Part shown: piece by piece, positions 8,594-50,981 of the stretch
Numbering within the stretch: position 1 is the first letter of the stretch
Layout: every line of letters begins with the position of its first letter
From: Deltaproteobacteria bacterium
Lineage (GTDB): Bacteria; Myxococcota_A; Polyangia; Haliangiales; J016
Direction: 5' to 3'
DNA length: 64,000 nucleotides
Assembly (NCBI GenBank): GCA_003696105.1
Contig: RFGE01000022.1
Coordinates: 4,177 to 68,176, forward strand
Program-made: the position numbers and the translations under genes
The notes under the pieces: model-generated
Databases searched by the model: none
What the model was told of the DNA's origin: nothing
The model's input: only the letters and a program-made list of their open reading frames with translations

Positions 8594-8608
8594 CGGCGAG
8601 GCCGTCCC

Positions 8609-8715: not shown

Positions 8716-8727
8716 GGATCCGCCCCG

Positions 8728-29869: not shown

Positions 29870-29989
29870 CGCTCCTCCTCGTTGTCGGCCGGCGGATGTG
29901 CCGGCGATCCCCGGCGGATCGCCGCCGAATCGCGCCCGGCCCGGTCGCCGCGCGAACCGCCTGTCAGACTCGCCGCCTATATACCGCAC

Positions 29990-30725: not shown

Positions 30726-30783
30726 GCTCGCCCGGCGGCCGTGATAACGTCGCGTCTGCGCTCGCGTTTTACTCGTGGGGCCG

Positions 30784-33700
30784 ATGACCGACGACGTCAC
30801 GCCGACCAACCCGCAGCCGATCGACGTGCTGCAGGCGCAACTGGACGCGTTCCGCAAGGACCCGACCGACGCCGACCTGTACGTCGAGCTGCGCGCGGCG
30901 CTGCGCAAAAGCGGTCATCCGGACCTGTTGGCGGAAATTTGCGAGCTGCGCGCCCCACACGAACGCGACCCTCGCAAGGCGGCCGCCATGTGGTCGGAGG
31001 CCGGCGAGGCGCGCCTGCTCATCGGCGACGAACACCGGGGAGACCGCGACCTGCGACAGGCGCTCGCCATCGACCCGGCGGACGAGCGCGCCGCCGCCCG
31101 CTACGCCGAACGCCTGATGGTCGCCGAGCGGTTCGCGGACGCTGCAGCCGTTCTCGAGGCCGAACTCGCCGAACTCGAGCGCCGAGCCGCGGACGCGGCG
31201 GGCGCGCGCAAGCGAGCGGCCGAGCCGTTCGCGGCGCGGCGCGCGCAGCGCCACCGACTGCTCGCGCAGCTTTGGGACGAACGCCTGGGCCGGGTCGACC
31301 GCGCGCTACATCACTGGCAGCGCGCGTGGCGGCTCGAGCCCGACAAACCGGACGCGATCGAGGCGGCGCGCGCAATCTACGCGAGCCTCGGCGACCACGA
31401 CATGGTGGCCGAGTTGTATCGCGCCGAGTTGGCCGCGATCGGCGAGCGCGCGCCGGCCCGGCGCCGCGCCGAACTCGAACTCGCCCTCGGGCGTCTGATG
31501 CTGCGGCGCGGCGACGCGGCCGCAGCGGCAGCGCACGCGGAGAACGCGGTCGCGCTCGCGCCCGACTGGGCCGACGCGCGCGAAACGCTGGCCGAGGTGT
31601 ACGCGTCGCCCGTGTTCGCCGGCGAGTCCGATCCACAGCGGCGCGCCGGCGAGCTGTTCGTCGAACTCGGCCGAGCGGCGCTCGACGACGACGACCGCGA
31701 ACGCGCGATTACCTACCTGCGCCGCGCGCTCGGCGTCGACCCGTACTCGCGGGCGGGCACCGAGTCGCTCGAGGAGGCGCTGGCGATCGACGACCGTTGG
31801 GAGGAGCTCGATCGGTTGTACCAGCACCGTCTCGGCCTCACCGACGATCCACGCGAGCGACTCGTTCTGCTGCGCAAGCGCGCCCTGCTGTACGAGGAGC
31901 AGATCGACGACCGCGACGAACTCATCGCCATCCTCGAACAGATCGCGGCGGCCGAACCGCCGGGCGGCGACGCGAGCCGCCGCCTCCGACAGCTGTACCG
32001 GGAAACGGAGAACTGGGCCGCGCTCGCCGCGCTGATCGAGCGCGACATCGCGAACGTGCCAGAAGAGCCAGGCCCGCTCACGGACGCCCTGCTCGAACTG
32101 GCGACGATCGCCAAGGAGCACCTGCGCGAACGCGACCGCGCTGCCGAGTATCTACACCGCATCCTCACGATCGATCCGACACATCCGGAGGCGCTCGCGC
32201 GCTATCACGAGCACTTCCGCGAGCGGCGCGACTGGCGCGGCCTGGCCGACCTCACCGAGTTCGCGATCGACAACGCCCGCGACGCAGGCGCGCCGCCCGG
32301 CGAGATCGTCCGGCAACTCGAAGAATTGGCCCAGCTCGCCGAAATGCGGCTCGGCGACGTCGACCGCGCGGTCGCGACGTGGCAGCGCGTGCAGCAGATC
32401 GAGCCCGACAATCCGCGAGCCCGCGAGGCGCTGCGCCGGTTGGCATCCCGCGCGAAGATGTGGGAGTCGCTCGTCGGCGTGCTCGAGCAAGAGGCGGCGC
32501 AAGCGCAAAGCCCGGCCGAGCGCGCCGAGGCATTGCGCCGCATCGCTCAGGTCTACCGCGAGCGGCACGTCCATCCGCGCCAGGCGATCGCGCTGTTCGA
32601 GGAAGTGCTGCAGACGTTCCCTGGCGACGAAAGCGCGCTCAAAGCGCTCGCGGAGCTGTACGAGCGCGAGGGGGACGATGCCGGGCTCGCGCGCACGCTG
32701 CGGCGGCAGCTCGACGTCGACGCGCGGCGCGTCGCCGAGCGCCTGCGCGCCGAGGGCAAAGCGGCTGCGTCCGCACGCGACTGGCCGGTCGCGCAGCGGG
32801 TCGAACGGCTCACCACGCTGCGCCGGCTCGCAACGATGTACGAGCAACGGCTCGCCGACGTCGAGGGCGTCGTGTTCGCGTGCGCGGGCATTCTCGAGAT
32901 TCTGCCGGGCGACCGCGACGCGCTCGACCGGATGGAGCGCGTTCTCGAACGCGCCGGCGACACGGTCCGCCTCGAACAGACGCTCGAGTACCACGCCGAG
33001 GCGGCGACCGGCCCGGCCGAGCGCGCGCGCGTGCTGCGCAGGCTGGCGCGTCTCGCCCGCGACCGCGACGACCCCGCCGCGGCCATGGAGCGGTGGGAGC
33101 GCGTGCTCGCGGCCACGCCCAACGATGCCGAGGCGCTCGTCGAACTCGCCCACCTGTACGAGACGTACCGCCGGTGGTCCGAGCTGGCCGACGTGCTCGA
33201 GCGCTCGCTGGCGCTCGAACGCGCCCCCGCCGCCGGCACGCCGGAAGCCGCCCGCCGCGCGGCAAAACTGAAGAAGCTCGCCCGGGTCGTCGACCGGGAA
33301 CTCGGCGACGACGCGCGCGCGATCCGCGCCTGGCGGCAATTATTGGATATCCAACCGAAAGACCGCGACGCGCTCGACGCGCTGGCGCGGCTGTACGAAG
33401 CGCGCGGGCAGTGGCGCGACCTCACCGAGATCCTGGAGCGGCAGGCCCCGCTGTACGCGCACGACGACCCGGCAAAGGCGGCCGAAGTCATTCTCCGGCG
33501 AGCGCGCCTGCTCGAGGAGCGCCTCGGCGCGCCGGTCGAGGCGATCGACGCGCTGGAAGCGCTGCTGGCCGACGTGGACCCCGGGAACCTCGACGCACAC
33601 AAGGCGTTGCGCCGCCTGTACGAAGCGCGCGGGGACTTCGACGCCGCGGTTCGAATCGCCGAACGCGAGATGTACCTTAGCGCCGGCGAGGCCGAGAAGA

Positions 33701-36700
33701 TCGCGCGGGGCATGGAAATCGGCCTCTTGTGCCGCGACCAGCTCGGCGATGCAACCCGCGCGCTCCAGGCGTTCGAGCGCGTGCTCGAGCTGGCTCCCGA
33801 CCACGACGAAGCGCTCGCGGCCGCGGCCGAGTTGTACGCGCAGGTCGGCGACTGGCACCGGCACGTCGATGCGCTCGAACGGCGCCTGCCGCGCGTCGCG
33901 GCGGAGCGCGACCGCCGCGCGCTGTACATCCGCATCGCGCAGGCCAAAGCCGAGCGGCTGCACGACCCCGAGGGCGCATTCGCCGTGTTGCGCACCGCAC
34001 ACGAGGAGTTGCCCGATCCCACCACCATCGCCGAACTGCGCCGTGCCGCGGAGGCCTACGGCCTGTGGGCCGAACTCGCTGACGTCTACGACCGCGAGCG
34101 CCGGTCGCTCGCCGGAGCCGGCGGTCCGGCGGACCCGGACGCGTACGTCGCGGCGTCGCGCCAGGTGGCCGCGATCGCGGAGCGGCGCCTCGGCGACCGC
34201 GCGCGCGCCATGGATGCACTGCGCGACGCGCTCGCCGCGGCGCCGCTGGACGACGGGTTGGTCGCCGAGGCCGAGCGCATCGCACTCGAAGCCGACGAGC
34301 CCGCGCTGTGGCAGAAGCTGATCGACGTCCTCGGCGTACCGCTGACGGCGGTCGGTCGAGCCGAGCGGGTCGCCCTCCATACGCGGCGAGCGCGCATCTA
34401 CGAGGAGCGGCTCGACGACCCGAAAGGCGCCTTCGAAGAGCTGCTGCGCGCGTTCGCCTGGGAACCGCAGCGCGACGAGACCCGCCAGGCGATCTACGCG
34501 CTCGCCGAGCGCACGCGGCGGTGGACCGACGTGGTCGCCGTAGAGGCGGCGCTGTTTCAGCGCGCGCCGTCGCGCGAGGAGGCGATCGCCGTGTTGCGCC
34601 GCAAGGCGCAGGTGATCGAGGACCACCTGCACGAACGCGTTCGCGCGTTCCGCACCCACCTGGCCGCGTTTCTGCTCGCGCCGGACGACGGCGACACCGT
34701 CGCGCACCTGTGGCGGCTCGCACGGGACATCGGGGACTATCGGCCCGCCGATCGACGGCCGAAGCCGGAGCCGCCGCCGGCGCACGTCGAACCGACAGAG
34801 ATCGACGAACCGGCCGCGGTGCAGTCGGCGCGCCCGACCGCACCGGGGCGACGGGCTGCCGATACCGTGCCGGCGCCGCGCATCGAAATTCAATCGACGA
34901 CGTCGCGGGGCGAGCCGACACAAGAACTCACGCTGTCGGATCTCATCCCGCTGGCGGGCGGCCCGCAGCCGCCGCCGCGGGAGGACTCGACCGTCGAACT
35001 CGACCTCAACGATCTCGAGCCGGTCGCCCGGCAGGGCGAATCTCGCGGCGATCCGACCATCGAGCTGCGGACCGAGGATCTCATCCAGGCCCTCCGACCC
35101 GGCGACGACACGGCGCCGGTACCGCCGCCGCAGTCGTCGCGCCCGCGGCTTCCGGGGGTCCGCGCGCCGGGCCAGCCGCCGCCCCCGCCGCCGCGCCGGC
35201 CGACGATTGAACGCCATCCGCGATCTCCCCGGAGCGCGACGCCACCTGCCGCGAAACGCGCCGCGCCACGTCCCGTCCGCGGGCGCTCCCTGCCCGCGAT
35301 GCCCGACCGCGACTACGCATCCGCGTGGGACGAGTTCGCCACTGCCTACGAGTTGCTACCGGCGGCGAGCGACGCGGACAAGCTGCGCTGGCTGTTCCGC
35401 GCGGCCGAGGTGTGGGAAGCCGGCGCCCGCGACGTGGACCGCGCGTTCGAGGTGCTCGAGCGCGCGCTCGCGCTCGCTCCCGACGACGCCGAGCCGCGCG
35501 CCCGATTGCACCGGCTCGCCGCTGACCACGACCGGTGGGATCGACTGGCGGAGCTGTACGAGGCCGCCGCCGAACGAGCGGACACCGCCGACACGGCGGC
35601 CGCGCTGTACATGGAAGTCGCCGCGATCCGCGCAAATCAGGGCCATGCACAGCAAACCGAACGGTTGTACCGTAAAGTGTTGGGCATGCGACCGGATGAC
35701 GCGGTCGCGCGCGAGCGCCTCGAGGCGCTATATCGAGCGTCCGACCGCTGGGTCGACCTTGCGGCGTCGCTCGAAGAGCGCACGGATCCTCGCCTCGGTG
35801 CCGCGGCACCGGAAGCCGAACGCCCCGCGCTGTTGCGCGAACTCGCATCGATCTACCGCGACAAACTTCACCGACCGCACGACGCGCTCGATGCGCTCGA
35901 TCGACTGCGCAAACTGGTGCCGGACGATCTCGACGTCCTCGATCAGATCGCGGAAATCAACCAGGAAGCGGGCCATTTCAGCGCTGTAGTCGACGCGCTT
36001 CACAAGATCGCGGACCTCGCCGAGGGCACGCCGCGCGCACGCGAGGCGCTCCGCCGCATCGGCGCCATTTACGAGCGAGAGATCGAACTACCGGATCGCG
36101 CGATCGATGCCTACAACGAGATCATCGCCGCGTGGCCCGACGATGCGGATGCGTACGCCGCGCTCGATCGCCTGTACGAGAGCCACGCGCGCTGGCACGA
36201 ACTGGCCGATACACTGAGGCGTCGCGCGTCACTCGCCGACGACCCTGCCGAGCGCGCCGCGCTATTGCATCGGCGCGCGCGCGTACTTCTCGATTGGCTC
36301 GGCAACCCGGACGAAGCGGCCGCCGCGCTGCGCCACGCGCGCACGCTCAATCCCGACGACCCGCAGCTCGCCGACGATCTGGTCACCGCACTCGTCAAAG
36401 CCGGCCGCGAACGCGAGGCCGCCGCGGTGCTCGAAGGCCGAGTCGAAGCGCTCACCCGCGACGGCGCGGCCGCCGGCGACATCGCGGCGCTGTGGATCCG
36501 CCTGGCGCAGCTCCGCGCCGATGCGCTCGACGACATCGACGGCGCACGGCGCGCGCTCGACCGCGCGCTCGAGTTGGTGCCCAATCACCCGACCGCGCTG
36601 TCGGTCCACACGCGCCTGGCCGACACGGACACCGACCCGCGTGCGTACGCGGAGGCGCGCCTGCGCGAAGCCGACGCGCTCCGCGACATCGACGATCAGA

Positions 36701-39225
36701 TCGCCGCGTTGCTCGACGCGGGCCGCACGCTGCGCGAGCGCTGCGGCGATTCGGACGCGGCCCGCGCGGCGTTCGAACGCGTGCTCGCCCTTCGCCCCGC
36801 GCATCCCGAAGCGACCTGGGAGTTGGCCGGCCTCATCGAGGAAAGCGGCGATCCCGACGCCGCCGCGGAGTTGCTCGAGCGCCAGCTCGACCAGGAGGCT
36901 CTCGCGCCCGCAGACCGCGCTCGAATCCTCACTCAGCTCGCCGCGCTCGCGCGCCGCGCCGGCGTCCCCGCCGCGGCCGAGCGGCGCCTCGAAGAGGCGC
37001 TGCGCGCCGTGCCGGGCCACGTGCCGGCGATCCTGGCGCGCGCCGATCTGCTCGCCGAGAGCGAGCAGCACGAGCAGCTCGTCGCGTTCTTGCAGGAAGC
37101 TCGAGCGCACGTCGACCGCGACGCAGGCGACGCCCGCGCCGAGATCGACCGCCGCCTCGCCGCAGCGTACGAGGCGCTGGGCCGCGACGACGATGCGTAC
37201 CACACGCTGCTCGAAGCCGATCGCCGCCATCGCGGCAACCTGTTGGTCAAACTGGCGCTCGGCGAAAACCGCTACCGCGCGCGCCGCTGGCGCGAAGCGG
37301 CGCTCCATCTCGGGGCGCTGGCGGACCATCCGGACGCGGACAAGCACGCAGCCGAGGTCGCGGAGGGCCTGTACCACGCAGCGCTCGCCGAGATCCGCGC
37401 CCTGCGTCCCAACAAGGCCGAGCCGCTGTACCGGCGCGCCATCGAACTCAAGCCAAACTACGCGCCCGCGCTGCACGCGCTCGCCGAGTTGGCGATGGAG
37501 CGCGGCGACATGCACGAAGCCGCGGACCTGCTCACCAGACAGGCGACGGCCACCGAAGATCCCGCCGAGCGCGTGCGCCTGTTCGAGGCGCTCGGTGACC
37601 TCGCACTGATGGCGCTACACGACGAACAGCGCGCGCGGGTATGCTACGAAGCCGCCGTGCAGGCGGCATCGCCGCTGGGCTCCGAGCACATCGCATTGCT
37701 CGAGAAGCTGCTCGAGCGACAAGACCTGGCCGGCGACCACGCGGGCGCCGCGCGCACCGCGGAGCTGATGGCGTCGTTCGCGGCCGATCCGGCGGCGCGC
37801 GCCGCTCGGCTGGTCGCGGCGGCGCAGAACTACCTCGCCGCAGGCGACGAAGACCACGCGGTCGCGGCGGCCGAGCGAGCCGTCGATGCCGATCCCTACG
37901 ATCTCACCGGGGCCACGATCGCGTCCGAGCTGATGATGAAACGCGAGGCGTACGATCGCGCCGCCGAGGTGCTCAGCCGCGCCCTGAGTGCGGCGGCGCC
38001 GGCCGACGACGTGACAGCGGCACGCGCCGCGGACCTGTGGCGGCGGCTGGCCGACGCGCGCCGCAGTCGCGGCGATCTCAAGGGCGCCGTGACCGCGTAC
38101 GAACGCGCCGTCGACGTCGCGCCCGAGTCGGACGCCGCCCTGCGCGCGCGCCGCGAACTGCTCGACCTGTGGGATGACGACGACGAGCGTCGCGACCGCT
38201 GCCTCGCGTTCGCCCGCGAGATCGCGCGCGTCGACCAGCGCCCCGCAGACATCCTGGCGTTGGCGCGCATGCTGTGTCGCGCTACCTCCGCCGGGCCGGT
38301 GCATGTCGACGGCAGCCGCACCGCGCTCGAACTCGCGGCGGCCCTCGGCGAGTCGCTCGGGCCGGACGACGTCGCCTTCTTGGCGAAATACCCGGAGCGC
38401 GTGCTCGACGTCGATGAGGCATACCGCGGCGCGCTCGACGACAGCGATCGCGCGCAGCTGATCGCGGACCCGAGGGACGAGCCGCTCGCCTCGGTTCTCC
38501 AGGTGTTGTGGGAAGCGGCGCCGCTATTGTGGTCGGAACCCGCGGACGCGCTCGAACGCATGGGGATCCCCGAGGCCGAGCGCGTCGGCGCGCGCTCCGA
38601 CCTCGTGGCGGCCGTGATGTATCCGCACATCGCGCGCGCTCTCGGCGCCCCGCGCACCGTGCTGTACACCGCCCAGACCGGCGCCGACATCACCGTCGCG
38701 TGCGTCGCACCGCCGATCGTCGCGCTCGGTCGCCGGTTGCAGGTCACCACCGGCGGAGAGCGAGGCGACGATGCGCCGGGCGATCTCGAGCTGCGCTTCC
38801 TACTGGGGCGCGCCGCCGAGTTTGCGCGGCCCGAACGCGCAATCGCGGTCGGGCTGCCGCGCGATCAGTTCGCCTCCCTCGTCGCATCGCTTCGGCGCGC
38901 GTTCGGCCCGGGTCCGTCGCGCGACGACATCGCTGCCGGCCAGCGAGAACAGGACGCCACGCTGCGCAAGACCTTGCCCGTGAAAGTGCGGACACGGCTC
39001 GAAGAGATCCTCGCGAGCGCGGACCCGCGCGATCTGGACCCGGACCGCTACGTCGCGGCGTGTCACCGGGCGGCGGATCGCGCCGGCCTGCTCGTGTGCG
39101 GCGACATCGCGACGGCGATCCGCGTCGCCGGCGGACCGGATCGAGCGCGCCACATCATCGACGTCGCGCTGCGCGACGCCTACCTCGACGCGCGCGCGCG
39201 CCTGGGCGTCGCCACCGATGGCTGA
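30784..39225 (+). CDS. giant TPR-repeat protein (~2810 aa) with internal Pro-rich linker and non-TPR C-terminal domain
   Basis: Single uninterrupted frame of 8.4 kb. Dozens of TPR-like A..(Y/L)..AL..(D/N)P...A...L units. ATG 30784, or GTG 30775 as in the track. Confidence 0.9.
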   Translation: MTDDVTPTNPQPIDVLQAQLDAFRKDPTDADLYVELRAALRKSGHPDLLAEICELRAPHERDPRKAAAMWSEAGEARLLIGDEHRGDRDLRQALAIDPADERAAARYAERLMVAERFADAAAVLEAELAELERRAADAAGARKRAAEPFAARRAQRHRLLAQLWDERLGRVDRALHHWQRAWRLEPDKPDAIEAARAIYASLGDHDMVAELYRAELAAIGERAPARRRAELELALGRLMLRRGDAAAAAAHAENAVALAPDWADARETLAEVYASPVFAGESDPQRRAGELFVELGRAALDDDDRERAITYLRRALGVDPYSRAGTESLEEALAIDDRWEELDRLYQHRLGLTDDPRERLVLLRKRALLYEEQIDDRDELIAILEQIAAAEPPGGDASRRLRQLYRETENWAALAALIERDIANVPEEPGPLTDALLELATIAKEHLRERDRAAEYLHRILTIDPTHPEALARYHEHFRERRDWRGLADLTEFAIDNARDAGAPPGEIVRQLEELAQLAEMRLGDVDRAVATWQRVQQIEPDNPRAREALRRLASRAKMWESLVGVLEQEAAQAQSPAERAEALRRIAQVYRERHVHPRQAIALFEEVLQTFPGDESALKALAELYEREGDDAGLARTLRRQLDVDARRVAERLRAEGKAAASARDWPVAQRVERLTTLRRLATMYEQRLADVEGVVFACAGILEILPGDRDALDRMERVLERAGDTVRLEQTLEYHAEAATGPAERARVLRRLARLARDRDDPAAAMERWERVLAATPNDAEALVELAHLYETYRRWSELADVLERSLALERAPAAGTPEAARRAAKLKKLARVVDRELGDDARAIRAWRQLLDIQPKDRDALDALARLYEARGQWRDLTEILERQAPLYAHDDPAKAAEVILRRARLLEERLGAPVEAIDALEALLADVDPGNLDAHKALRRLYEARGDFDAAVRIAEREMYLSAGEAEKIARGMEIGLLCRDQLGDATRALQAFERVLELAPDHDEALAAAAELYAQVGDWHRHVDALERRLPRVAAERDRRALYIRIAQAKAERLHDPEGAFAVLRTAHEELPDPTTIAELRRAAEAYGLWAELADVYDRERRSLAGAGGPADPDAYVAASRQVAAIAERRLGDRARAMDALRDALAAAPLDDGLVAEAERIALEADEPALWQKLIDVLGVPLTAVGRAERVALHTRRARIYEERLDDPKGAFEELLRAFAWEPQRDETRQAIYALAERTRRWTDVVAVEAALFQRAPSREEAIAVLRRKAQVIEDHLHERVRAFRTHLAAFLLAPDDGDTVAHLWRLARDIGDYRPADRRPKPEPPPAHVEPTEIDEPAAVQSARPTAPGRRAADTVPAPRIEIQSTTSRGEPTQELTLSDLIPLAGGPQPPPREDSTVELDLNDLEPVARQGESRGDPTIELRTEDLIQALRPGDDTAPVPPPQSSRPRLPGVRAPGQPPPPPPRRPTIERHPRSPRSATPPAAKRAAPRPVRGRSLPAMPDRDYASAWDEFATAYELLPAASDADKLRWLFRAAEVWEAGARDVDRAFEVLERALALAPDDAEPRARLHRLAADHDRWDRLAELYEAAAERADTADTAAALYMEVAAIRANQGHAQQTERLYRKVLGMRPDDAVARERLEALYRASDRWVDLAASLEERTDPRLGAAAPEAERPALLRELASIYRDKLHRPHDALDALDRLRKLVPDDLDVLDQIAEINQEAGHFSAVVDALHKIADLAEGTPRAREALRRIGAIYEREIELPDRAIDAYNEIIAAWPDDADAYAALDRLYESHARWHELADTLRRRASLADDPAERAALLHRRARVLLDWLGNPDEAAAALRHARTLNPDDPQLADDLVTALVKAGREREAAAVLEGRVEALTRDGAAAGDIAALWIRLAQLRADALDDIDGARRALDRALELVPNHPTALSVHTRLADTDTDPRAYAEARLREADALRDIDDQIAALLDAGRTLRERCGDSDAARAAFERVLALRPAHPEATWELAGLIEESGDPDAAAELLERQLDQEALAPADRARILTQLAALARRAGVPAAAERRLEEALRAVPGHVPAILARADLLAESEQHEQLVAFLQEARAHVDRDAGDARAEIDRRLAAAYEALGRDDDAYHTLLEADRRHRGNLLVKLALGENRYRARRWREAALHLGALADHPDADKHAAEVAEGLYHAALAEIRALRPNKAEPLYRRAIELKPNYAPALHALAELAMERGDMHEAADLLTRQATATEDPAERVRLFEALGDLALMALHDEQRARVCYEAAVQAASPLGSEHIALLEKLLERQDLAGDHAGAARTAELMASFAADPAARAARLVAAAQNYLAAGDEDHAVAAAERAVDADPYDLTGATIASELMMKREAYDRAAEVLSRALSAAAPADDVTAARAADLWRRLADARRSRGDLKGAVTAYERAVDVAPESDAALRARRELLDLWDDDDERRDRCLAFAREIARVDQRPADILALARMLCRATSAGPVHVDGSRTALELAAALGESLGPDDVAFLAKYPERVLDVDEAYRGALDDSDRAQLIADPRDEPLASVLQVLWEAAPLLWSEPADALERMGIPEAERVGARSDLVAAVMYPHIARALGAPRTVLYTAQTGADITVACVAPPIVALGRRLQVTTGGERGDDAPGDLELRFLLGRAAEFARPERAIAVGLPRDQFASLVASLRRAFGPGPSRDDIAAGQREQDATLRKTLPVKVRTRLEEILASADPRDLDPDRYVAACHRAADRAGLLVCGDIATAIRVAGGPDRARHIIDVALRDAYLDARARLGVATDG

Positions 39226-39291
39226 CGCGCCGGCCGCACCCGGCCGCCGCGCGCCGGCGGGTTGCGCTCGCCGCGGGCGTCGCCGATCCTG

Positions 39292-40587
39292 ATGATCGTG
39301 TCATCGCCCCGCCCCCGGGCGCGCCATGCCGGGCGCCCGCCGCGTCGCCCGCCGGCCTCGGCGCGGCGCCGACGCCTGCGCACCGCCGCGGCCGTCGCGG
39401 TCGCCGCTGCCGCGAGCGCGTGCGGCGACGTACCCGCCGCCCTCTCGATCCCCGACGCGCGCGCGCCCGACGCCGCCGCAGCCGACGCCGCCGCTCCTCC
39501 GGTCCCGACCTGGCCACCGGCCGCGCCCATCCCCGACGCGATCGACTTTCCGCCGTGGCTCACTCTCCCCGCCCCCGACCGCGTTGTCGTGAGCTGGCGG
39601 ACGGTCGCTCCGACGCGCGGCGGCGTGCGCTACACGTCGGACCGCGGAGGCGGCGTCGTGCTGTCGCCGTCGCTCGCTGTCCTCCACCAGGTCGAACTCG
39701 GGCCGCTCGTCCCCGGCACGCGCTACCGCTACGAGGTGTTCATCGACGGAACGGACGTGTCGTTGCCCGGCGTGTTCACCACACCAGGCGGCTCGCGCTG
39801 GCGCTTCGTCCACCTCGCCGAGTTCCACGCCGCCAGCGAAGCGGATCACGTCGCCCGGTTCACCGAGGCGATCCGCGCGTTCGAGCCGAATGCCGTCGTC
39901 CACTCCGGCGACATGTGTGACTCGGGCGACGATCTCGCGGACTGGCGCAGCTTCTTTCGCACCGCCGCGCCATGGACCGCAAATGCGTTTTTGCTCCCCG
40001 CGCACTCCAACCACGTCAACGGCCCGGCCGGCAACGGCAATGCGCTGGCGCTGTTCGTGCTGCCCGACGCACAGCGCTGGTACCATACGCGTTTCGGCGA
40101 CACATCCATCTACACCCTCGACTCGACCTACGACGGGGCCAACCCGGACGTCGGGTCGGCGCAACTCGACTGGTTGCGGTCGACGCTCGCGGCCGAGCGC
40201 GCGTCGACCGCGCCGCCGCGGTTCGTAATCGGCGCGTGGCACTATCCGGCGTGCTCGAGTCACTACGCGTCGCGCGCCGACCAGCACCAGTGGGTGGTCG
40301 ACCACATCTTGCCCGCGTTCGCCGATGCCGGCGGCGTGGACCTCGTGCTCACCGGGCACGACAAGTACTACGAGCGATCCACCATCGCCGGCGGCCCGGT
40401 TCACGTCATGGCCAATGCCGGCCGGCTCCGGCCCGGCTCGCCCGGCGGGACGCCGGACGTCTGCGCGCCGCAGGTGACCGACACGGCCACCCGGTCGGTC
40501 GGCTTGTACGAGGTCGGGCCGGACGGCATCACGGCCGTCGTCGTCGGCGACGGCGGCAGCGTGATCGACCAGTTCTCGGTCCCCTGA
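39292..40587 (+). CDS. purple-acid-phosphatase-like metallophosphoesterase lipoprotein
   Basis: RRRRLRTAAAVAVAAAASAC (signal/lipobox), an FN3-like PAP N-domain (VVVSWRTV...GTRYRYEV), and metallophosphatase motifs (HSGDMCDSG, HSNH, LTGHDKYYER). Start uncertain (track start TTG 39262). Confidence 0.8.
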   Translation: MIVSSPRPRARHAGRPPRRPPASARRRRLRTAAAVAVAAAASACGDVPAALSIPDARAPDAAAADAAAPPVPTWPPAAPIPDAIDFPPWLTLPAPDRVVVSWRTVAPTRGGVRYTSDRGGGVVLSPSLAVLHQVELGPLVPGTRYRYEVFIDGTDVSLPGVFTTPGGSRWRFVHLAEFHAASEADHVARFTEAIRAFEPNAVVHSGDMCDSGDDLADWRSFFRTAAPWTANAFLLPAHSNHVNGPAGNGNALALFVLPDAQRWYHTRFGDTSIYTLDSTYDGANPDVGSAQLDWLRSTLAAERASTAPPRFVIGAWHYPACSSHYASRADQHQWVVDHILPAFADAGGVDLVLTGHDKYYERSTIAGGPVHVMANAGRLRPGSPGGTPDVCAPQVTDTATRSVGLYEVGPDGITAVVVGDGGSVIDQFSVP

Positions 40588-40621
40588 CGCCGACCGGCGT
40601 TCGTGCTAGGGTTGCGGGCCG

Positions 40622-40900
40622 ATGTACCTGGGACGCGTCATCGGCACGGTCGTCGCTCAGCGCAAGTACGCAGGGCTCGAGGGGCGCAAGTTACTGCTCG
40701 TGCAGCCCGTAGACGACGCCGGTACCGCCACCGGCCGCCCCGAGGTGGCGGTCGACACCGTCCAGGCGGGCCCGGACGACCTCGTGTTCCTGGTCGGCTC
40801 GCGCGAGGCCGCGCTCGCCCTCGATCCCTCGTTCGTTCCCGTGGACGCCGCGATCGTCGGCATCGTCGACCAGGTCGCCAGCGAACCGGTGACGCCATGA
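40622..40900 (+). CDS. bacterial microcompartment vertex protein BMC-P (EutN/CcmL family)
   Basis: [29 protein letters not shown]...[21 protein letters not shown]...DAAIVGIVD is the canonical EutN/CcmL pattern. 92 aa. Confidence 0.9.
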
Positions 40901-41169
40901 AGGTGTGCCGCGTTACGGGCACCGTCGTGTCCACGATCAAGCATGGCGTCTACGAAGGACGTCGCCTGATGGTCGTCCACCCCGAAGACGGCGGCGCGAG
41001 CTTTTTGGCCGTCGATACGGTGCAGGCCGGTCCCGGCGATCGCGTGCTCGTCATGCGCGAGGGCAACGGCGTGCGCCAGATCCTGGGCATCGGATCGCAG
41101 GTGCCGATTCGCTCGCTGATCGTCGGCATCGTCGACGCCGTCGACCGCGCCGACGGCGACACGCCATGA
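40897..41169 (+). CDS. bacterial microcompartment vertex protein BMC-P (second copy)
   Basis: ATGA overlap. [29 protein letters not shown]...[21 protein letters not shown]...[11 protein letters not shown]. Confidence 0.9.
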
Positions 41170-41927
41170 CCGCCGACCGCCGACAAGCCGACGCCGTCGT
41201 CGAGGTGGCGCGCGCGCTTCACGCGCGCGGGTGGGTGGCCAACCACGACGGCAACGTGACGGTCCGGCTCGGAGCCGACCGGTACCTCGCAACCCCGACC
41301 GCCACGTCGAAAGCGAAGGTCACGCGCGACTCTCTGCTGGTCGTCGACGGCGAGGGCAAGCGCGTCAGTGGCCGCACGCGGCCGTTTTCCGAGATCAACC
41401 TGCATCTGGCGATCTACGCGGCGCGGACGGACGTCGGTGCCGTCGTCCACGCTCACCCGCCACACGCGACGGCGCTGGCGTGCAGCGGTTCCGATCTGCT
41501 CGCGCGCCCGTTCATCGCCGAGGCGGTCGTGTCCCTCGGGCCGGCGATCCCGACGGTGCCGTTCGCGCCGCCCGGACCGGCCGCCGCGCGCGCCGTGGCG
41601 GCCGTCGCCCGCGACGTCGACGCCGCATTGCTCGGCAACCACGGAGTGCTCACGTGGGCCGCCGACGTCGAGCTGGCCTACTTGCGGATGGAACTCGTCG
41701 AACACCTCGCGCGCATCGCGATCGCGGCGCAGGCGGTCGGCGGCGTTCGCCCGCTCCCGGCCGACGCCATCGGGCCGCTGTTGGCGGCTCGCGCGAGAGC
41801 CGGGCTGGGCGCGGCGGCCGACCGCGCCGCCGCAGCGCAATCGCCCGCGCCGGTGGCCAGCGCGAGCACCGACGCATTGGCCGCGATCGTGCGAGAGGAA
41901 GTCCTGCGCGCCCTCGGCCGCCACTGA
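41166..41927 (+). CDS. class II aldolase/adducin-family protein with C-terminal encapsulation-peptide-like helix
   Basis: ATGA overlap. GNVTVRL...EINLHLAIY...[11 protein letters not shown]...LGNHGVLTW are class II aldolase motifs. An Ala/Pro linker is followed by [20 protein letters not shown]. Confidence 0.88.
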
Positions 41928-42009
41928 CGCGGCGACACGTGGAACACCGGGCCGCGCCCCGGAGGCGTGGCGAGCCGCCCCGCATTCGCGTCGCGCGTCG
42001 CCTGTCGCG

Positions 42010-42330
42010 TCAACCGGCCGAGTCGCCTCGCAGGCCGCCGAGAATCGCGCGGAAGATCGACCGGTTTTGCGCCTTCTCCTGCTCGAGCACCTTCTCGAGT
42101 TCGCCGTCGTCGAGCCACAGCCCGCCGCAGCCGAAGCAACGGTCGATCTCGATCGCGCCGTAGTGCACCGTGTGCAGCGACTCGCCGCACTTCGGACAGT
42201 GCATGAAGTGAAGTTGCTTCTGCCGCTCGCGCTCGGCCGCTTCGAGTTCCTTGCGCCGTTGCTCGGCCAGCTTCTTCAGTTTTTCGACCTCTTGGCGAAA
42301 GAAATACTCTTCTTCTGCTCTGCTCGTCAC
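42010..42330 (-). CDS. zf-TFIIB-type zinc-ribbon protein with N-terminal coiled coil
   Basis: HCPKCGESLHTVHYGAIEIDRCFGCGGLWLDDGELEKV. GTG 42330 is preceded by GGAGGG (5-nt spacer). Alternative GTG 42351 overlaps the kinase stop. Confidence 0.75.
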   Translation of the reverse strand: MTSRAEEEYFFRQEVEKLKKLAEQRRKELEAAERERQKQLHFMHCPKCGESLHTVHYGAIEIDRCFGCGGLWLDDGELEKVLEQEKAQNRSIFRAILGGLRGDSAG

Positions 42331-42347
42331 AATGCCCTCCGGGCCGC

Positions 42348-45300
42348 TCACGATACCCCAAAGCCGGGCGCGAGCAGCGCGGCGAGGCGCGAAATCGACC
42401 GCACGCCTTGGTGCGCGAACGCGGCCTCCGCTTCGGCGACGAGCGCCGCGCCTTCGTCCCCGCCGACCAGGCGGCCGAGGTGCCAGCGCGCCGCCGCCGC
42501 GAACAGCCCGAGTTCCGCCGCGTCGCACGCGGCCACCGCGCCGCGCAGGCGCTGCACAGCGCCCGCGGCGTCGCCGGCGCACGCCGCGGCGCCGGCCGCC
42601 ACCAGCGCAGCGAGCGCCCGTTCCCAGCTCCCTCCACGGGCGAGCGGCCGCGCCGCCTTGAGCGCCTCGCGCCGCCGGCCGGCGGCGAGCAGCGCGCGCG
42701 CGCGCAGGTGTGCGACAACCGGAGCGATCGCCGGCAGTCGATGCAGCCGAGACGCCGCGATCGCCGGCCCCGCGCGGTCCACCCGGTCGATCGCCGCCGC
42801 CACGTCGCGCGTGTACAGATCGATGTGGACTTGCGCCACGAGGTCGTCGATGTGCTGCAGCCACCACCGATCGCTCGACCAGCCGCGCATGGCCTCGTCG
42901 GCGCGCGCGCGCGCGCCGGTCGGGTCGTCGGCCGCAAGCCACACCAGGTTCGACCACCCAGACAACAGCGAAGCGGTCGCCAGTCGATCGCCGCGCTCGT
43001 CGGCCTCGCGCAGCCGCGCAGGCACGCGCTCAGCCAGGTCGCGCAGTCGGCCCAAAAACGCCAACGCGCGGTGCGCGACCTGCTGCGCGCTTCCCCGCTC
43101 CCACCACACGTTCGTGCAGTCCCGCAGGATCACGTCTGCCGCCTCGGCGGCGGCGAGCGCCCGCGTCCACTCGCCCGCCGCGGCCGCCGCAATGCCCTCG
43201 GTCAAGCTCACCAGGCCGCGCGCGCGATCGCTGTCGAGGTCGTCCGCCAACTTCGCGGCGAGTGCGAGCAGTTGGTCGATCCGGCGCCGCTGCCGCTCCG
43301 ACCCGCCGGCGCTGTACGCGACCTCGGCAGCGAACGCGCGGCACACGCGAAATCGCTCGCCGGCATCGAGCGCCTCCACCAGATGGAACAACTGAAAGTC
43401 CGCGCCGCGCGCCGGATCGACGTGGACCAACCCCATCGCGACCGTCCACAGGATGTCGACCACGGTGAGCGCCTCGAGCGAAACCTGCGTCGCGTCGCGC
43501 GGCTTGAATCGGAGGCTGCGTGCGCGAAGGCGTGCGCGCTGGCGCGCCAGCGACCATGCGCCCTGCCGCTCGCTGTCGACCGAGCCGAGCCCGGCGGCGT
43601 CGAGCACCCGCCCGAGCGCGTCGAGCCCGTCGGCCACGTGGCCGCTGCGCAACAGCTGTTCCGCGGCCCGCCGCAGCAGCTCGAGCTGCGCGGCGGCCGA
43701 CGATCCCTCCGCCGCGTCGAGATATGCGCGCGCAGCGTCCGCACCGCGTCCCGCGTACGCGAGCGCGTCGCCGAGCCGCGTGTACAGCCGGCGCAGGACG
43801 ACCCCTTCCGGACGTTGCCACTCGATCGCTTGCCGATACAGCTGCGCGGCGCGATCGAACGCGAGTGCCGCGGCCGCACGCCCGGCCGCCTCCTCCGCGT
43901 ACGCGCCCGCGCGCGGCAGATCGCCAGCGGCCGCCCAGTGGACCGCGAGCGCCTGCGCGTCGGCGCCGACGGCTTCCAGCGACAGCGCAAGTCGATGATG
44001 GCACGCCGCGCGCTGCTCGTCGCTCATTCGGTCGATGACCGCGTCGCGCACCCGACCGTGATACGGCTCGATCTCTTCGGCGCGGCCGACCCCGGTCGTC
44101 CGCGTGAGCTTGCTCGCGCGCAGCCGGCCGACTACCTCCGTGAACTCGCCAAACTCGACCCCCGCCGCTTCCGCGGCCACCTCCTGCGCGATCGGCGCGC
44201 CGGCGATCGACACGACCTCGACAATCGCGCGCGCGGTGTCCCCGAGCTGCTCGATTCGAGACCACAGCGCGGCGTCGAGATCCGGCAGCGCGATGTGCGC
44301 ACCGCCGAGCGAGACCGCGTGCTGTACGAGTTCGTCGATAAACAGCGGATGGCCGCGCGCCTCGTGCGCGATCGCGTCCGCGCCGGCGCGCGGGTCGACG
44401 TCCGCCTCGCGCAGCAACACGGCCGCAAGTTCGCGCGCCTCCGCCGGCGGCAGGGGCCCCAGGTGGACGTGGCGGATGTCAGCGACGTCGGTGCGCACCG
44501 AAAACTGCGGCACGGACGCCAGCGCCGCTGCCGGTTCGGACGCCTCCGTGCGCGCGCTCGCCACGAGCAACATCGGCGGCTCATCGGGCGGCTTCATCAC
44601 GTCGCGCAACAGCGCCAAACTGTCGCCGTCGACCCACTGCAGATCCTCGATGATGACGACGAGCCGGCGCCGTTCCGCGATCCGGTAAAACAGCTCGCGC
44701 ACCGCCGCGAACAGACGCCGCCGCTGCTCGAGCGGGTCGGCGATGTCGTGCGGTGGCCCGGGCGCCTTCGCAACGGCTTCTACCCGTCGCAGCACGGGGA
44801 AAATGTTGGCCGCCAGCCCCACGTCGAGAGGCAACACCGCGGCGACCTCCTCCGCCGGCTCCCGCCGCAGCACGCGGCTGAGCACGTCGATCACGCCGTC
44901 GATTGCCTTGTAGGGAACCGACTCGCGTTCGTGACAACGTCCGGCGAGCACGATCGCGCGCGGGTCGCCGGCGACTACGCCGCGCGCGAACCGCTGCAGC
45001 AGCGCGGTCTTTCCGACGCCGGAGTCGCCAGTCAGATACAGCGTTACGGCGCGGCCGCGCGCCGTCTGCTGGACCGCGTCGTGCAGCAGCGCCAGCTCGC
45101 GTTGGCGACCGACGAACGGCTGGTCCATCGCCGGATCGATCTGGCGCGGTGCGACGGTCACCTTCGCATCGACGCCGAGGGTCGCGAGAATGTCGCGACC
45201 GGTCGCGCGGCGCGACGGGTCGATCGCGAGTAGCCGCACGCACAGGTCGTCCAGTTCCGGCGGAATGCCGCCCAGCACGGCGCCGGGCGGCGGCGGCGCA

Positions 45301-46100
45301 ACCTGTTGCTTTCGCAACAAAATTTCCATCCGCGAGCCGGTATACGGCAGCCTGCCGGTCATCGCGCGATACAACACCACGCCGACCGCATACCAGTCGG
45401 CCGCCGGCGTTACCGGCCTACCGGCGGCCTGCTCCGGGGCCATGTAGTCGGCGGTGCCGACGACGATCCCGTCGGTGGTATGGCCGGTGGTCGTCTTGTC
45501 GATGACGAACCCGAAGTCGAGCAACACTGCGCGCCCTTCCGGCGTCACGAGTACGTTGGACGGCTTGATGTCGCGGTGGACCTTGTTCGCTCGATGAAGC
45601 GCCATCAGTGCCTGCGCGAGTTGCGCGAGCGCCGATGCGAGCTTGTCGACGTCGAAGCCGAGACCGAGCGCCGACGGCAACTTCCCTGTGGTCTTCGCGG
45701 CCGGAATTTCGCCCATCGTCGCGCGGCGCGCGCGAAACAGCTCCGACGCCTCGAGCGCAGCCGCCGCGGCGAAGGCGTCCCCGCCGGCCGCGCCGTCGCG
45801 CACGTAGCGGACGAAGTTGACGCCGTGGACGAGTTCCATCGTGAAAAACCACAAGCCGCGGTGTTCGAACAGCTCGCCGAGTTGGACGAGGTTCGGGTGC
45901 TGGACGCTCTGCAGGCTGCGAAACTCGTCCTTGAACCGCAGCAGCATTTCGGCGTTCTTCACCCGGAGCGTCTTGAGCGCGACGCGCCGTTGCGTCTCGC
46001 GGTCGAACACCTCGTAGACGACCCCCATCCCGCCCGAGCCGAGCCGCGACAGCACTTCGAACCGTTCGGTCCCGGGGAAGTCGAAATCCCGGCTCGTCAT
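42348..46100 (-). CDS. Ser/Thr protein kinase fused to AAA/STAND NTPase and TPR-like region (PknK-like)
   Basis: GSGGMGVVYEV...ALK, HRDIKPSNVL, DFG, GTADYMAPE, then P-loop LTGDSGVGKTALL and a long helical C-terminus. ATG 46100 is preferred to the track start 46154. Confidence 0.88.
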   Translation of the reverse strand: MTSRDFDFPGTERFEVLSRLGSGGMGVVYEVFDRETQRRVALKTLRVKNAEMLLRFKDEFRSLQSVQHPNLVQLGELFEHRGLWFFTMELVHGVNFVRYVRDGAAGGDAFAAAAALEASELFRARRATMGEIPAAKTTGKLPSALGLGFDVDKLASALAQLAQALMALHRANKVHRDIKPSNVLVTPEGRAVLLDFGFVIDKTTTGHTTDGIVVGTADYMAPEQAAGRPVTPAADWYAVGVVLYRAMTGRLPYTGSRMEILLRKQQVAPPPPGAVLGGIPPELDDLCVRLLAIDPSRRATGRDILATLGVDAKVTVAPRQIDPAMDQPFVGRQRELALLHDAVQQTARGRAVTLYLTGDSGVGKTALLQRFARGVVAGDPRAIVLAGRCHERESVPYKAIDGVIDVLSRVLRREPAEEVAAVLPLDVGLAANIFPVLRRVEAVAKAPGPPHDIADPLEQRRRLFAAVRELFYRIAERRRLVVIIEDLQWVDGDSLALLRDVMKPPDEPPMLLVASARTEASEPAAALASVPQFSVRTDVADIRHVHLGPLPPAEARELAAVLLREADVDPRAGADAIAHEARGHPLFIDELVQHAVSLGGAHIALPDLDAALWSRIEQLGDTARAIVEVVSIAGAPIAQEVAAEAAGVEFGEFTEVVGRLRASKLTRTTGVGRAEEIEPYHGRVRDAVIDRMSDEQRAACHHRLALSLEAVGADAQALAVHWAAAGDLPRAGAYAEEAAGRAAAALAFDRAAQLYRQAIEWQRPEGVVLRRLYTRLGDALAYAGRGADAARAYLDAAEGSSAAAQLELLRRAAEQLLRSGHVADGLDALGRVLDAAGLGSVDSERQGAWSLARQRARLRARSLRFKPRDATQVSLEALTVVDILWTVAMGLVHVDPARGADFQLFHLVEALDAGERFRVCRAFAAEVAYSAGGSERQRRRIDQLLALAAKLADDLDSDRARGLVSLTEGIAAAAAGEWTRALAAAEAADVILRDCTNVWWERGSAQQVAHRALAFLGRLRDLAERVPARLREADERGDRLATASLLSGWSNLVWLAADDPTGARARADEAMRGWSSDRWWLQHIDDLVAQVHIDLYTRDVAAAIDRVDRAGPAIAASRLHRLPAIAPVVAHLRARALLAAGRRREALKAARPLARGGSWERALAALVAAGAAACAGDAAGAVQRLRGAVAACDAAELGLFAAAARWHLGRLVGGDEGAALVAEAEAAFAHQGVRSISRLAALLAPGFGVS

Positions 46101-46229
46101 CCCGATGCGCGATTGTAGCCGCAATCGCGCGAGGCCACGACCACTGGCGACCACGCTGATGCGCCACAGCGTCAGGCAGCACGCGGATCGAGGAAGCGCG
46201 CGCCGCCGGCCGAAACGCGCGGCCGCCGG

Positions 46230-47963: not shown

Positions 47964-49145
47964 TTACGGCAGCGTCAGGTCGGACAGGTCGCGCGGGTAC
48001 ACGAGCCAGATGTTTCCGCCTGAGGCGAAGTTGAGCGGCCGAAGTGTGCCGACCACGCGCGGCAGCGCGCGGCCGACGAATGCGGCGGGATCGAAGTCGG
48101 GCACCTGGCCCAACGTGGACACCGAGATGGAGTCGAAGCAGCCTTTGCCGACGTCGAGCTTCCACTGGCCGAACTCGGCGAAGCTGTCGTCGAGCGGGCA
48201 GACGACGCCGCCTTCGACCGCGACCACGCCGGCTTCCAGCCGCTCGAGTTCGATGCGCGTGTCGAGCCACGCCGGATCGATCGGCACCGGCGCGGGGATG
48301 CGCGCCGGGTCGTGCTCGCCGCTGGCAATGCGCGTGCGCGGAAAGCCGATCTCCGTGAGCCCCTCGAACTCGGACACGCCGCCGCCCACCTCGGCCACCA
48401 CGTCGCCGGCGCGGATGTCACCGCCGTCCACCGTCTCCGGGCGGGAGAAGGTGAACACGAAAATGTGGTCGTAGTCGCCGGCCACGCACGGCGGCGTGCC
48501 CGCGGCGTCTGCGCACCGGACGTCCGACAGCGTGTACCCCTGGGCGTACACGCCGGTGACGACGAGCCGTCCCTCGGCGCCGTAGCGGCTCTGCGTCACC
48601 GTGACCTGTTTGCGCTCGAGCGGCGACACGAACAGCGCGTCGAGCGCCGTCTCGTCCTCGGGCATGGAGATGTCCACCAGCCACGGGTCCCGAAACCACA
48701 TGCGGGGCGACGTGCCGGTGGCGAACGTGGCGTTCGGGCCGACCGCGTCCTCGACCCACAAGAACGCCGGGCCGAACACGCGGGGCAACGACAGCGCGAC
48801 GTCGCCCGTCCGACCGCCCGCGATCGCCACGGTCGCGAGCGCCTCGCCGGAATTCAGCTCCGGCGTGAGACTGCCGAGGTGGTGCACGAACACGCGCAGG
48901 TCCGCGGCAAAGCCCGTATCGACCTCCCCCGCGGCGTCCAGCGCGGTGACCCGGACGACCACGTCTCGAGCGTCGTCGGGCAACCGGCGGTCGGCGGTGC
49001 CGGGATCGGCCGGCGCGATCAGGTCGACTCGCAGCGACGTCGTGCCCTCGAGCGGCGGCAGCCGATCCGTACAGCCGGCGGCACACGCGGCCACCGCGGC
49101 GGCCGCCCACGCCTTCCTACTCGAACACCGGGCGAATACGCCCAT
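47964..49145 (-). CDS. lipoprotein with ExeM/NucH-like OB-fold segment
   Basis: [25 protein letters not shown] (lipobox). VTGVYAQGYTLSD...IFVFTF...GDVVAEVGGGVSEFEGLTEI resembles the OB-fold found N-terminal in extracellular nucleases. Overlaps the upstream gene by 29 nt. Confidence 0.65.
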   Translation of the reverse strand: MGVFARCSSRKAWAAAAVAACAAGCTDRLPPLEGTTSLRVDLIAPADPGTADRRLPDDARDVVVRVTALDAAGEVDTGFAADLRVFVHHLGSLTPELNSGEALATVAIAGGRTGDVALSLPRVFGPAFLWVEDAVGPNATFATGTSPRMWFRDPWLVDISMPEDETALDALFVSPLERKQVTVTQSRYGAEGRLVVTGVYAQGYTLSDVRCADAAGTPPCVAGDYDHIFVFTFSRPETVDGGDIRAGDVVAEVGGGVSEFEGLTEIGFPRTRIASGEHDPARIPAPVPIDPAWLDTRIELERLEAGVVAVEGGVVCPLDDSFAEFGQWKLDVGKGCFDSISVSTLGQVPDFDPAAFVGRALPRVVGTLRPLNFASGGNIWLVYPRDLSDLTLP

Positions 49146-50907
49146 CGTGTGGCTCCACCGTCTCGTCGATGCAGGCGATCGCGCCGTGCTCGGCGATGAC
49201 CGCGGGATCAGTACACGCCGGCTGCCGGCGCAAAAAATCGGTGAGCGCGTCGCGCAGCGAAATGCCGGTGTCGATCTTCGCCGTGTTGCGCTCCAGCACG
49301 TCGAACCCCGATCCGCCGCGCGCGATGAAGTCGTTGACCGCGACCCGGTACAGCGCGCCCAATTCGAGCGGCGCACACTTCGTCTCGTCGATCGGGCCGT
49401 CCGGGTTGCCGTTGCGACAGTTCTCCCCGAGAAAGATGTTCTTCGCGCACCCGTTCGGGCAGTCCGGCGATCGGCACACCATGTCGTGCCAGATTCCGGC
49501 GACCTGCGCTTGCGACCGGCAGCCACGGCTAGCCGACTTCCGCGCGTTGAAGTCGAGCATCTCCTTGACCTCGGCGCCCGACAGGTACATGACGGTGATG
49601 CTGTTTTCGAACGGGAACACGTTGAACATCTGTTCGACGGTGAGCGCCCCCGGTTCGAAATCGGCTCGAATGCCGAGTGAGTTGGTGAGCGCGAACTCCG
49701 CCTCGACGCCCGACCGCGTTTGCATCGCGCGCGCCACGAGGTTGCCGAGCTGGGAGTCGCCGCCCGTGGGGTCGTTGCGAACGATCTTCGCGCCGCCCGG
49801 CGCGTCGACGTAGGCGAACACGCCGTCGAGGTCGATCTTCGCGTTGAGTTGCTGCCAGTACGGTTGCAGCAGATCCGTCAGTTCGACGTCGTCCGGAACC
49901 GTGGAGTCCACCGGGATGGTTTCGTACGAAAAGGCGGTGATGCGGCTGCGATCGGCCGGATCGCGGTTGTTTTCGCCCACCCGGACGACCAGATCGAGGC
50001 GCCCGACGTACTTCGCAAACGCTCCGGAGTGGACGAGAATCGCCTCGTTGCCGTCCTGGTCACGAATGACCTTGGGCGGGTTGAGCACGATGTGCAGGTG
50101 GCCGCCGAGGATCACGTCGACGTCGGCGAGCGGAAGCAGTTCGTTGCGGTCGAGTTCGATGTCGGCCGCGCTCAGTCCTTCGTCCTCCTCGAGCCCGAGG
50201 TGAGACAGCACGACCACGACGTCCACGACCGGGCGCAACAGCCGCGCGTAGCTGGCGACCACCTGGCCGTCCTCGATCGGCCGAATGCCGAGCGAGTTGC
50301 CGCCCTCGAAGATGCCGGTCATCGACGACCAGTTGCCCATTCCGATCACGCCGACGAGCACCCCGTCGAGATCGAAGATCGCGTAGGGCTGAACGACGTC
50401 GCGCAGCCACGGCTCCATCGGGTCGTTCGGCTCCTCGAACACGTAGTTGGCCGCCAGCGACCGGTACGTCGCCCACTGGTCGATCTGCTCGTAGAGGTTG
50501 CGCGAGCCGAGGTCGAACTCGTGGTTGCCCAACACCGCGGCGTCGAGCCCGGCGCGCGACAGCGCCCGGACCTCGACCTCGCCGCGAAACAAGTTGAACA
50601 CGGGCGCGCCCTGAAACACGTCGCCCGAGTCGAGCCACAGCGACCGCGCCGCCCGCTCCCGCTGCTCCTTGACCAGGGTGGCGATGCGCGCGATCCCGCC
50701 GAACGGGCCGTTTTCGGGAAGCAGGCCGTAGCCCTCGTCGAACCGGTTCGGCGTGAGCGTGTAGGGAAACAGCCGCGAGTGGATGTCGGCCGTGTGGACG
50801 ATGGTAATGCGAACGTCCTGGCCGACGAGGTCCGGGCGGTCGCGCGCCACCGTACACGCCGCGACGAGCGCCGCGGCCGCGGAGAGGATCGGCAGGCTCC
50901 GGGCCAT
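49117..50907 (-). CDS. bifunctional metallophosphatase/5'-nucleotidase (UshA family) lipoprotein
   Basis: [18 protein letters not shown] (lipobox). Intact motifs [29 protein letters not shown]. The C-terminal 5'-nucleotidase domain carries a Cys-rich insert. The track start 50967 is less likely. Confidence 0.88.
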
Positions 50908-50981
50908 GGAACGGCCCACATACCACACGCCCCCCACACGCCGATAGTCCGACCGGCCGCCGGCCACGCACCGGCTGCGCT

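Follow-up and report, generated by a model that had tools for sequence, protein, structure and literature searches.

A probable type I satellite locus of the Haliangium-type microcompartment in a metagenome-assembled genome of the Myxococcota

Satellite loci of bacterial microcompartments (BMCs) are those in which only PF03319 or only PF00936 genes are found (Axen et al. 2014; definitions in PMC4207490 and PMC8217296). The HO (Haliangium-type) BMC was named by Sutter et al. (2021, Nat Commun 12:3809), who found about 40 more genomes with it and described its function as one that 'remains enigmatic'. According to the same catalogue, a BMC-P triplet is common to all HO loci; in type I, two BMC-P genes and an aldolase gene form a satellite locus, while in type II these genes are part of the main locus. 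The HO shell is the principal model of microcompartments in both structural work and engineering. Here, a stretch of 64,000 nucleotides (contig RFGE01000022.1, positions 4,177 to 68,176; 'the window' below) from a metagenome-assembled genome (MAG) of the Myxococcota is analysed, in which two BMC-P genes, P1 and P2, are followed by a gene for a class II aldolase. This trio is most probably a type I satellite locus of an HO-type BMC.

The three genes are joined by start/stop overlaps of the form ATGA, at 40897-40900 between P1 and P2 and at 41166-41169 between P2 and the aldolase gene (all coordinates are those of the window), and they are translationally coupled. A first-pass annotation of the window, made from the sequence and its open reading frames (ORFs), had claimed exactly such a tandem of two BMC-P genes and a class II aldolase gene with ATGA overlaps, and the claim is confirmed by the ORFs, the sequence and the Pfam matches, which are far beyond chance (Table 1). 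P1 can start only at the ATG at 40622, since its reading frame is closed by a stop codon at 40607. In NCBI, the entries RMH44828.1, RMH44829.1 (P2, locus tag D6689_01555) and RMH44830.1, of a MAG labelled 'Deltaproteobacteria bacterium', have the same sequences as the three proteins, and an exact look-up with P1 found the same DNA in a 14-kb Logan contig from SRR7905024 (L001; L numbers are our handles for loci and contigs). The exact-sequence look-up with the aldolase gave no match.

Hexamer and trimer shell genes are absent within the 64 kb, as the same annotation had also claimed. When PduA, HO-5815, CcmK2 and EutM were compared with the window by tblastn, the best E value was only 0.43. 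Profile hidden Markov models (HMMs) were then derived from 122 BMC-H and 49 BMC-T sequences and searched with the --max option against all 623 segments of 40 aa or more from the six-frame translation. The best E values in all six frames of the window were 0.13 for BMC-H and 0.028 for BMC-T, both below 10 bits and thus noise, while the same procedure, as a positive control, recovered both BMC-P genes (E 9e-57 and 7e-12). In some 35 other ORFs of the window, Pfam scans revealed no aldehyde dehydrogenase (AldDH), phosphotransacylase, alcohol dehydrogenase, DeoC or BMC domain. The scanned ORFs are ordinary chromosomal genes, such as those for ribosomal protein L19, ABC transporters, histidine kinases, a type III pantothenate kinase, pyruvate kinase, LexA and MurJ. 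An Rfam scan of the window yielded one tRNA and nothing else.

The parallel with a two-BMC-P satellite of Haliangium ochraceum, which the first-pass annotation had drawn, is borne out. The window aldolase is 62% identical to H. ochraceum ACY16921.1 (Hoch_4427) over 99% of its length, and on contig L087 a protein of the 90% cluster of Hoch_4427 is preceded directly by two EutN genes, which correspond to Hoch_4425 and Hoch_4426. Judged from these alignments, in which P1 and P2 were compared via the L087 copies, the trio of the window is orthologous to Hoch_4425-4426-4427. Gene content, gene order and the shared strand are the same in the Haliangium satellite, which has no BMC-H or BMC-T gene nearby. 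In the window, two adjacent PF03319 genes are likewise followed by a PF00596 aldolase gene on one strand, and only one class of shell domain is present, PF00936 not being detected there. Set against the published BMC catalogues, as the earlier annotation had proposed, the locus falls into the type I HO satellites of Sutter et al. (2021). A literature search by the locus tags Hoch_4425, Hoch_4426 and Hoch_4427 gave no match in the papers covered.

Two differences from the Haliangium form are seen. The P2 of Haliangium has 127 aa, with an Ala/Asp-rich tail of about 35 residues, whereas the P2 of the window has 90 aa and no tail. The surroundings differ too: in the Haliangium-like L087 the trio is preceded by MsrA and followed after 152 nt by pyruvate kinase, whereas in the window it is preceded by a TPR protein and a phosphatase and pyruvate kinase is 9 kb downstream.

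P1 and P2 share 45% identity with each other. In contrast, P1 is 82% identical to the P1 of L087 and 70-85% identical to those of L082, L084 and L086, and P2 is 65% identical to the P2 of L087 and 63-81% identical to those of the same three loci. Therefore, P1 and P2 are distinct, separately conserved paralogs. To the BMC-P class of the main loci (HO-5814 and Pa of the MAG J125), they show 33-45% identity (45% for P1 and HO-5814) or no detectable similarity. They are thus distinct members of a BMC-P triplet in which the third paralog is the main-locus class.

To place the trio among its relatives, 86 aldolase loci were gathered by scanning metagenomes with an alignment of aldolases and from earlier look-ups. 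The order P1-P2-aldolase is nearly universal among them. Upstream sequence of 300 nt or more is available for 73 of the loci, and in 69 of these a BMC-P gene directly precedes the aldolase gene, at aldolase identities of 46-74%. Where at least 3.5 kb upstream is available, 24 of 27 loci are satellites, and three (L132, L144 and L147) contain the full series H-P3-AldDH-T-P1-P2-aldolase, where H, P3 and T stand for BMC-H, the third BMC-P and BMC-T. Five additional fragments are of type II. In the three complete type II loci the P1-P2-aldolase block is the same as in the window, with aldolases 49-57% identical to that of the window; it is contiguous there with the genes for BMC-H, the third BMC-P, AldDH and BMC-T, whereas in the window it is detached.

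The main loci were surveyed by a genome scan with the BMC-H protein HO-5815, which gave 80 loci. Those of the Myxococcota (L002-L011, L013 and L062) have the order H-P-AldDH-T and lack the P-P pair, and such loci are the complement of the satellite in the window. Many loci of other phyla are of the form H-(P)-AldDH-T-P1-P2, with the aldolase next in two. By comparison with these relatives, it is very likely that the main locus of the source genome lies elsewhere in it.

A compact order (T)-H-P-AldDH-T-P-P is seen in the MAG J125 (L012/L093, RFKJ01000674.1) and in L091 (JGI Ga0256727_1000053); the aldolase gene does not adjoin this locus, the next gene being on the opposite strand. J125 is probably from the same project as the MAG of the window, considering the J-numbered naming and the adjacent RM-series accessions. 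Its locus L012 was considered as the main locus of the window's MAG and rejected, since it belongs to a different MAG with RME accessions. HO-like H-AldDH-T-P-P loci also occur in MAGs with implausible labels, namely L064 ('Methanosarcinales archaeon', coverage 0.38), L009 ('Enterobacteriaceae') and L014 ('Alphaproteobacteria'); these labels are probably binning or labelling errors.

Other BMC types with a similar inventory fit the window less well. ACI (Acidobacteria) loci and the PVM/GRM5 BMCs, with a class II aldolase as signature enzyme, share a PF00596 aldolase with the window; theirs bears an encapsulation peptide (EP) at the C-terminus, and a BMC-P triplet accompanies it (Sutter et al. 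2021; PMC4594438). In the ACI-like loci (L063, L071-L074, L077-L081), however, the aldolase gene is 5' of BMC-H and three BMC-P genes follow, all in one locus, and the aldolase is only 37-47% identical to that of the window. The substrates of PVM/GRM5 are fuculose phosphate and rhamnulose phosphate, which are not established for HO. An assignment of the locus to the ACI, PVM or SPU type was rejected, because neither the gene order nor the identities agree with these types and DeoC and RpiB are not in the window.

A Glu and three His residues of the aldolase that align with E73, H92, H94 and H155 of Escherichia coli FucA (the catalytic Glu and the zinc ligands) are conserved. The position of the acid/base residue Tyr113 of FucA is occupied by Phe, as it is in the top PDB match, 6voq. 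None of the NCBIfam equivalog models reaches its cutoff with the aldolase: the FucA models give 70-86 bits where 250-400 are required, and the top model, for 3-oxo-tetronate 4-phosphate decarboxylase, gives 110 bits where 250 are required. The protein is a member of the PF00596 superfamily, but does not qualify as a FucA equivalog, with its score below cutoff and Tyr113 replaced.

The C-terminus of the aldolase is where a signal for encapsulation may be sought. The EPs of BMC cargo proteins are recognized as a terminal amphipathic helix of about 17 residues, with a linker of low conservation between it and the catalytic domain (Kinney/Aussignargues), and C-terminal EPs with linkers of 23-81 residues have been reported on BMC-associated class II aldolases (PMC4594438). 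In an AlphaFold2 model of the window aldolase (mean pLDDT 93), a helix is predicted at residues 235-251 with a pLDDT of about 92, and the pLDDT is 67-71 over residues 221-240. Among 70 homologs, conservation is poor from about residue 214 and the Ala/Pro-rich linker varies in both length and sequence; the terminal motif [IV][IV]REE[IL]xRAL is kept in essentially all those inspected, with E244/E245, R248 and L250 invariant or nearly so. The motif is common to the window aldolase and Hoch_4427 (RVIREELVRAL). The non-BMC aldolases matched in the PDB align only up to about residue 204 of the query and lack the C-terminal extension. A conserved helix after a flexible linker, as aligned and modelled here, is consistent with an EP.

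A comparable element is found in the AldDHs of type I main loci (L002:10618-12069, L003, L007 and L008), which begin with an amphipathic helix, e.g. RIEEIVRRVVERL, followed by an Ala/Pro linker. This helix has a hydrophobic moment of about 0.8 and resembles the C-terminal motif of the aldolase, which fits co-encapsulation of the two enzymes. The aldolase is likely an encapsulated (signature) enzyme. As a separate observation, more than half of the aldolase homologs (P0005-P0070) have a conserved V[VI]ACAPAPH motif in the otherwise variable linker, a motif that the window protein and Hoch_4427 lack.

By analogy with the relatives, the parts may be combined as follows. A main locus elsewhere, which in the relatives reads BMC-H, third BMC-P, AldDH, BMC-T, would supply the facets, the third vertex protein and an acylating AldDH, and the P1 and P2 of the satellite would form pentamers able to occupy the shell vertices. 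The conserved C-terminal helix would draw the aldolase into the lumen, where it would cleave a ketose phosphate into a triose phosphate and an aldehyde, and the aldehyde would be converted to acyl-CoA by the co-encapsulated AldDH.

Several observations weigh against this assignment, and some of them would suit other explanations. None of the 80 loci of the HO-5815 scan comes from the MAG of the window, and searches for BMC-H and AldDH proteins (10 AldDH candidates; high-GC Kofleriaceae query) returned no protein of the RMH series, the BMC-H search being dominated by metagenomic clusters of 82-97% identity. Because the main locus was not found for this MAG, membership in a complete BMC is read from the relatives. 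With PF00936 also missing from the window, it might be supposed that the genome is without a main BMC locus and that the pentamer pair and the aldolase act without a hexamer shell, e.g. as a small BMC-P/aldolase complex. However, the failed searches covered only part of the genome, the MAG is fragmented (the contig has 74.7 kb), and in L132, L144 and L147 the P1-P2-aldolase block is physically joined to the genes of a hexamer shell; an explanation without hexamers is considered very improbable. As to the vertices, the only Haliangium BMC-P chain that a PDB search returned is the main-locus paralog 5v74, with the sequence of the Hoch_5814 class, so that the structural evidence for vertex incorporation is for that paralog and not for the two of the satellite. 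As to the reaction, the lack of an NCBIfam equivalog and the Phe at the Tyr113 position mean that it could differ from fuculose-phosphate or rhamnulose-phosphate cleavage. As to the helix, the hydrophobic moment of the C-terminal 16-mer of the aldolase is 0.23; of 5000 shuffles of the same residues, 3060 had a moment at least as high, and by this measure the helix is not strongly amphipathic. Since the hydrophobic moment fails to separate the helix from shuffled sequences, its assignment as an EP draws on position and conservation. The non-significant moment would agree with an ordinary cytosolic sugar-phosphate aldolase, in which the C-terminal extension serves oligomerisation or regulation instead of encapsulation, and so would a 2024 preprint, according to which it is not known what HO BMCs natively encapsulate and by which peptides. 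Such an enzyme would nevertheless have to be reconciled with an adjacency to BMC-P that is kept at 46-74% aldolase identity, with a linker and terminal helix that match the EP architecture of BMC class II aldolases (PMC4594438), and with the absence of the extension from the PDB-matched non-BMC aldolases. A cytosolic aldolase is, on balance, unlikely.

It may also be asked whether the transcription unit is larger than the trio and whether its other members take part in the microcompartment pathway or in assembly. The TPR, phosphatase, P1, P2 and aldolase genes all point the same way; the TPR and phosphatase genes are 36-66 nt apart (depending on the phosphatase start), P1, with its start at 40622, follows the phosphatase stop (40587) after 34 nt, and consensus scans for promoters and terminators found no such site in 38800-42600. 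These scans, however, are uninformative at the GC content of the window (about 73%). The phosphatase has the N-terminus ARRRRLRTAAAVAVAAAASAC, with an Arg-rich signal peptide and a lipobox-like AASAC, and would thus leave the cytoplasm; judged from this sequence, it is probably exported and is therefore unlikely to be part of the organelle. A homolog occurs near the triad only in L084/L085 (51% identity), and it is missing from L082, L086, L087, L089, L090 and the other satellites, i.e., from all but one related lineage. With the export signal and a neighbourhood that is not conserved, the phosphatase was rejected as cargo or pathway enzyme. TPR homologs (50-70% identity over more than 2000 aa) are 5' of the triad in eight of the 24 satellites (L082, L084, L086, L089, L090, L097, L111 and L130), but they are absent from the other 16, from the Haliangium-like L087, and from the flanks (+/-10 kb) of all 80 BMC-H loci. 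Furthermore, in particular lineages the TPR gene and P1 are separated by the insertion of unrelated genes (an ABC transporter and a dioxygenase in L082, an opposite-strand kinase in L111 and L130), which fits synteny inherited within one clade. Participation of the phosphatase, the TPR protein or both is accordingly regarded as quite improbable, and the type I satellite of three genes is retained.

The locus in the window is ordinary, because its arrangement is already on record for Haliangium-type microcompartments. The 2021 BMC catalogue contains this arrangement in both its split and its fused form and also raises the question of the cargo chemistry, and to these the window adds nothing new. 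That the cargo chemistry is unresolved, as the first-pass annotation had put it, agrees with the sources of 2021 and 2024, in which it is still called unknown. The locus has minor comparative value as another satellite, with an aldolase that appears intact in its catalytic residues and is tagged with a C-terminal helix, and with a similar N-terminal helix on the AldDHs of related main loci.

Table 1. Positions of the trio, of parts of the aldolase and of neighbouring genes in the window
Feature	Position	Strand	Length or residues	Remarks
BMC-P1	40622-40900	+	92 aa	Vertex pentamer paralog, Hoch_4425 class; PF03319 EutN_CcmL, E 1.5e-27 (Pfam)
BMC-P2	40897-41169	+	90 aa	Vertex pentamer paralog, Hoch_4426 class; PF03319, E 1.1e-20 (Pfam)
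Class II aldolase	41166-41927	+	253 aa	Hoch_4427 ortholog; PF00596 Aldolase_II, E 3.6e-46 (Pfam)
Linker of aldolase	41838-41867	+	residues ~225-234	Ala/Pro/Ser-rich, flexible
Putative C-terminal encapsulation peptide of aldolase	41868-41918	+	residues 235-251	
Metallophosphatase	39292-40587 (or start 39262)	+	431/441 aa	PF00149 Metallophos, E 9e-6
TPR protein	30775-39225	+	2816 aa	TPR families only in Pfam scan
AAA_28 ATPase	29978-30637	+		5' of TPR gene
Zn_ribbon_TFIIB small protein	42010-42330	-		Convergent with aldolase gene; E 1.7e-16
Ser/Thr kinase	42348-46154	-	1268 aa	Convergent with aldolase gene; AAA_16 domain
5'-nucleotidase and pyruvate kinase	49117-52409	- and +		Recur downstream of triad
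Protein with Fam20C C-terminal domain	19337-20410	-	357 aa	E 2.5e-9

The first-pass annotation had described the gene upstream of P1 as one for a purple-acid-phosphatase-like lipoprotein at a distance of 34 nt and as an odd neighbour. The distance and the lipobox-like signal are as claimed. The enzyme label is weakly supported, because PF16656 Pur_ac_phosph_N (E 1.3e-4, 22.9 bits) is below its 30-bit cutoff; PF00149, at 26.7 bits, is above its cutoff of 21.5 bits, and no NCBIfam model matches the protein. Odd it is, in the sense of an incidental neighbour, considering that homologs stand beside the triad only in the one lineage mentioned above.

The AAA_28 ATPase and the TPR protein are kept together beside the triad in one clade of the Myxococcota, comprising the eight satellites with a TPR homolog; both are absent from L087 and from the BMC-H loci. 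A role of the giant TPR protein as a compartment-associated factor, i.e., a scaffold, a positioning factor or a regulatory partner of the extra BMC-P paralogs, is quite improbable. If it were true, the protein would be a new BMC accessory and could bear on why BMC-P triplets exist. The clade-specific linkage is only a mildly novel lead. In L090, the gene called at 7126-9945 (939 aa) is a fusion in which EutN domains are attached to the C-terminal portion of the TPR protein, and the tblastn match to the TPR protein is in several pieces; a frameshift or an assembly error is likely.

Downstream of the triad, the 5'-nucleotidase and pyruvate kinase genes recur. Pyruvate kinase is 46-152 nt after the aldolase gene in L106 (1357-2763) and L087 (6648-8063), whereas the distance is 6.6-9 kb in the window, L084, L086, L104 and L130; in L087, it is followed by the Entner-Doudoroff genes Eda, Edd and G6PD. 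The position of the convergent Ser/Thr kinase is kept in L084, L085 and L096 (63% identity). Farther upstream in the window, a protein carries a C-terminal domain of Fam20C, the Golgi casein kinase, which is unusual for a bacterium.

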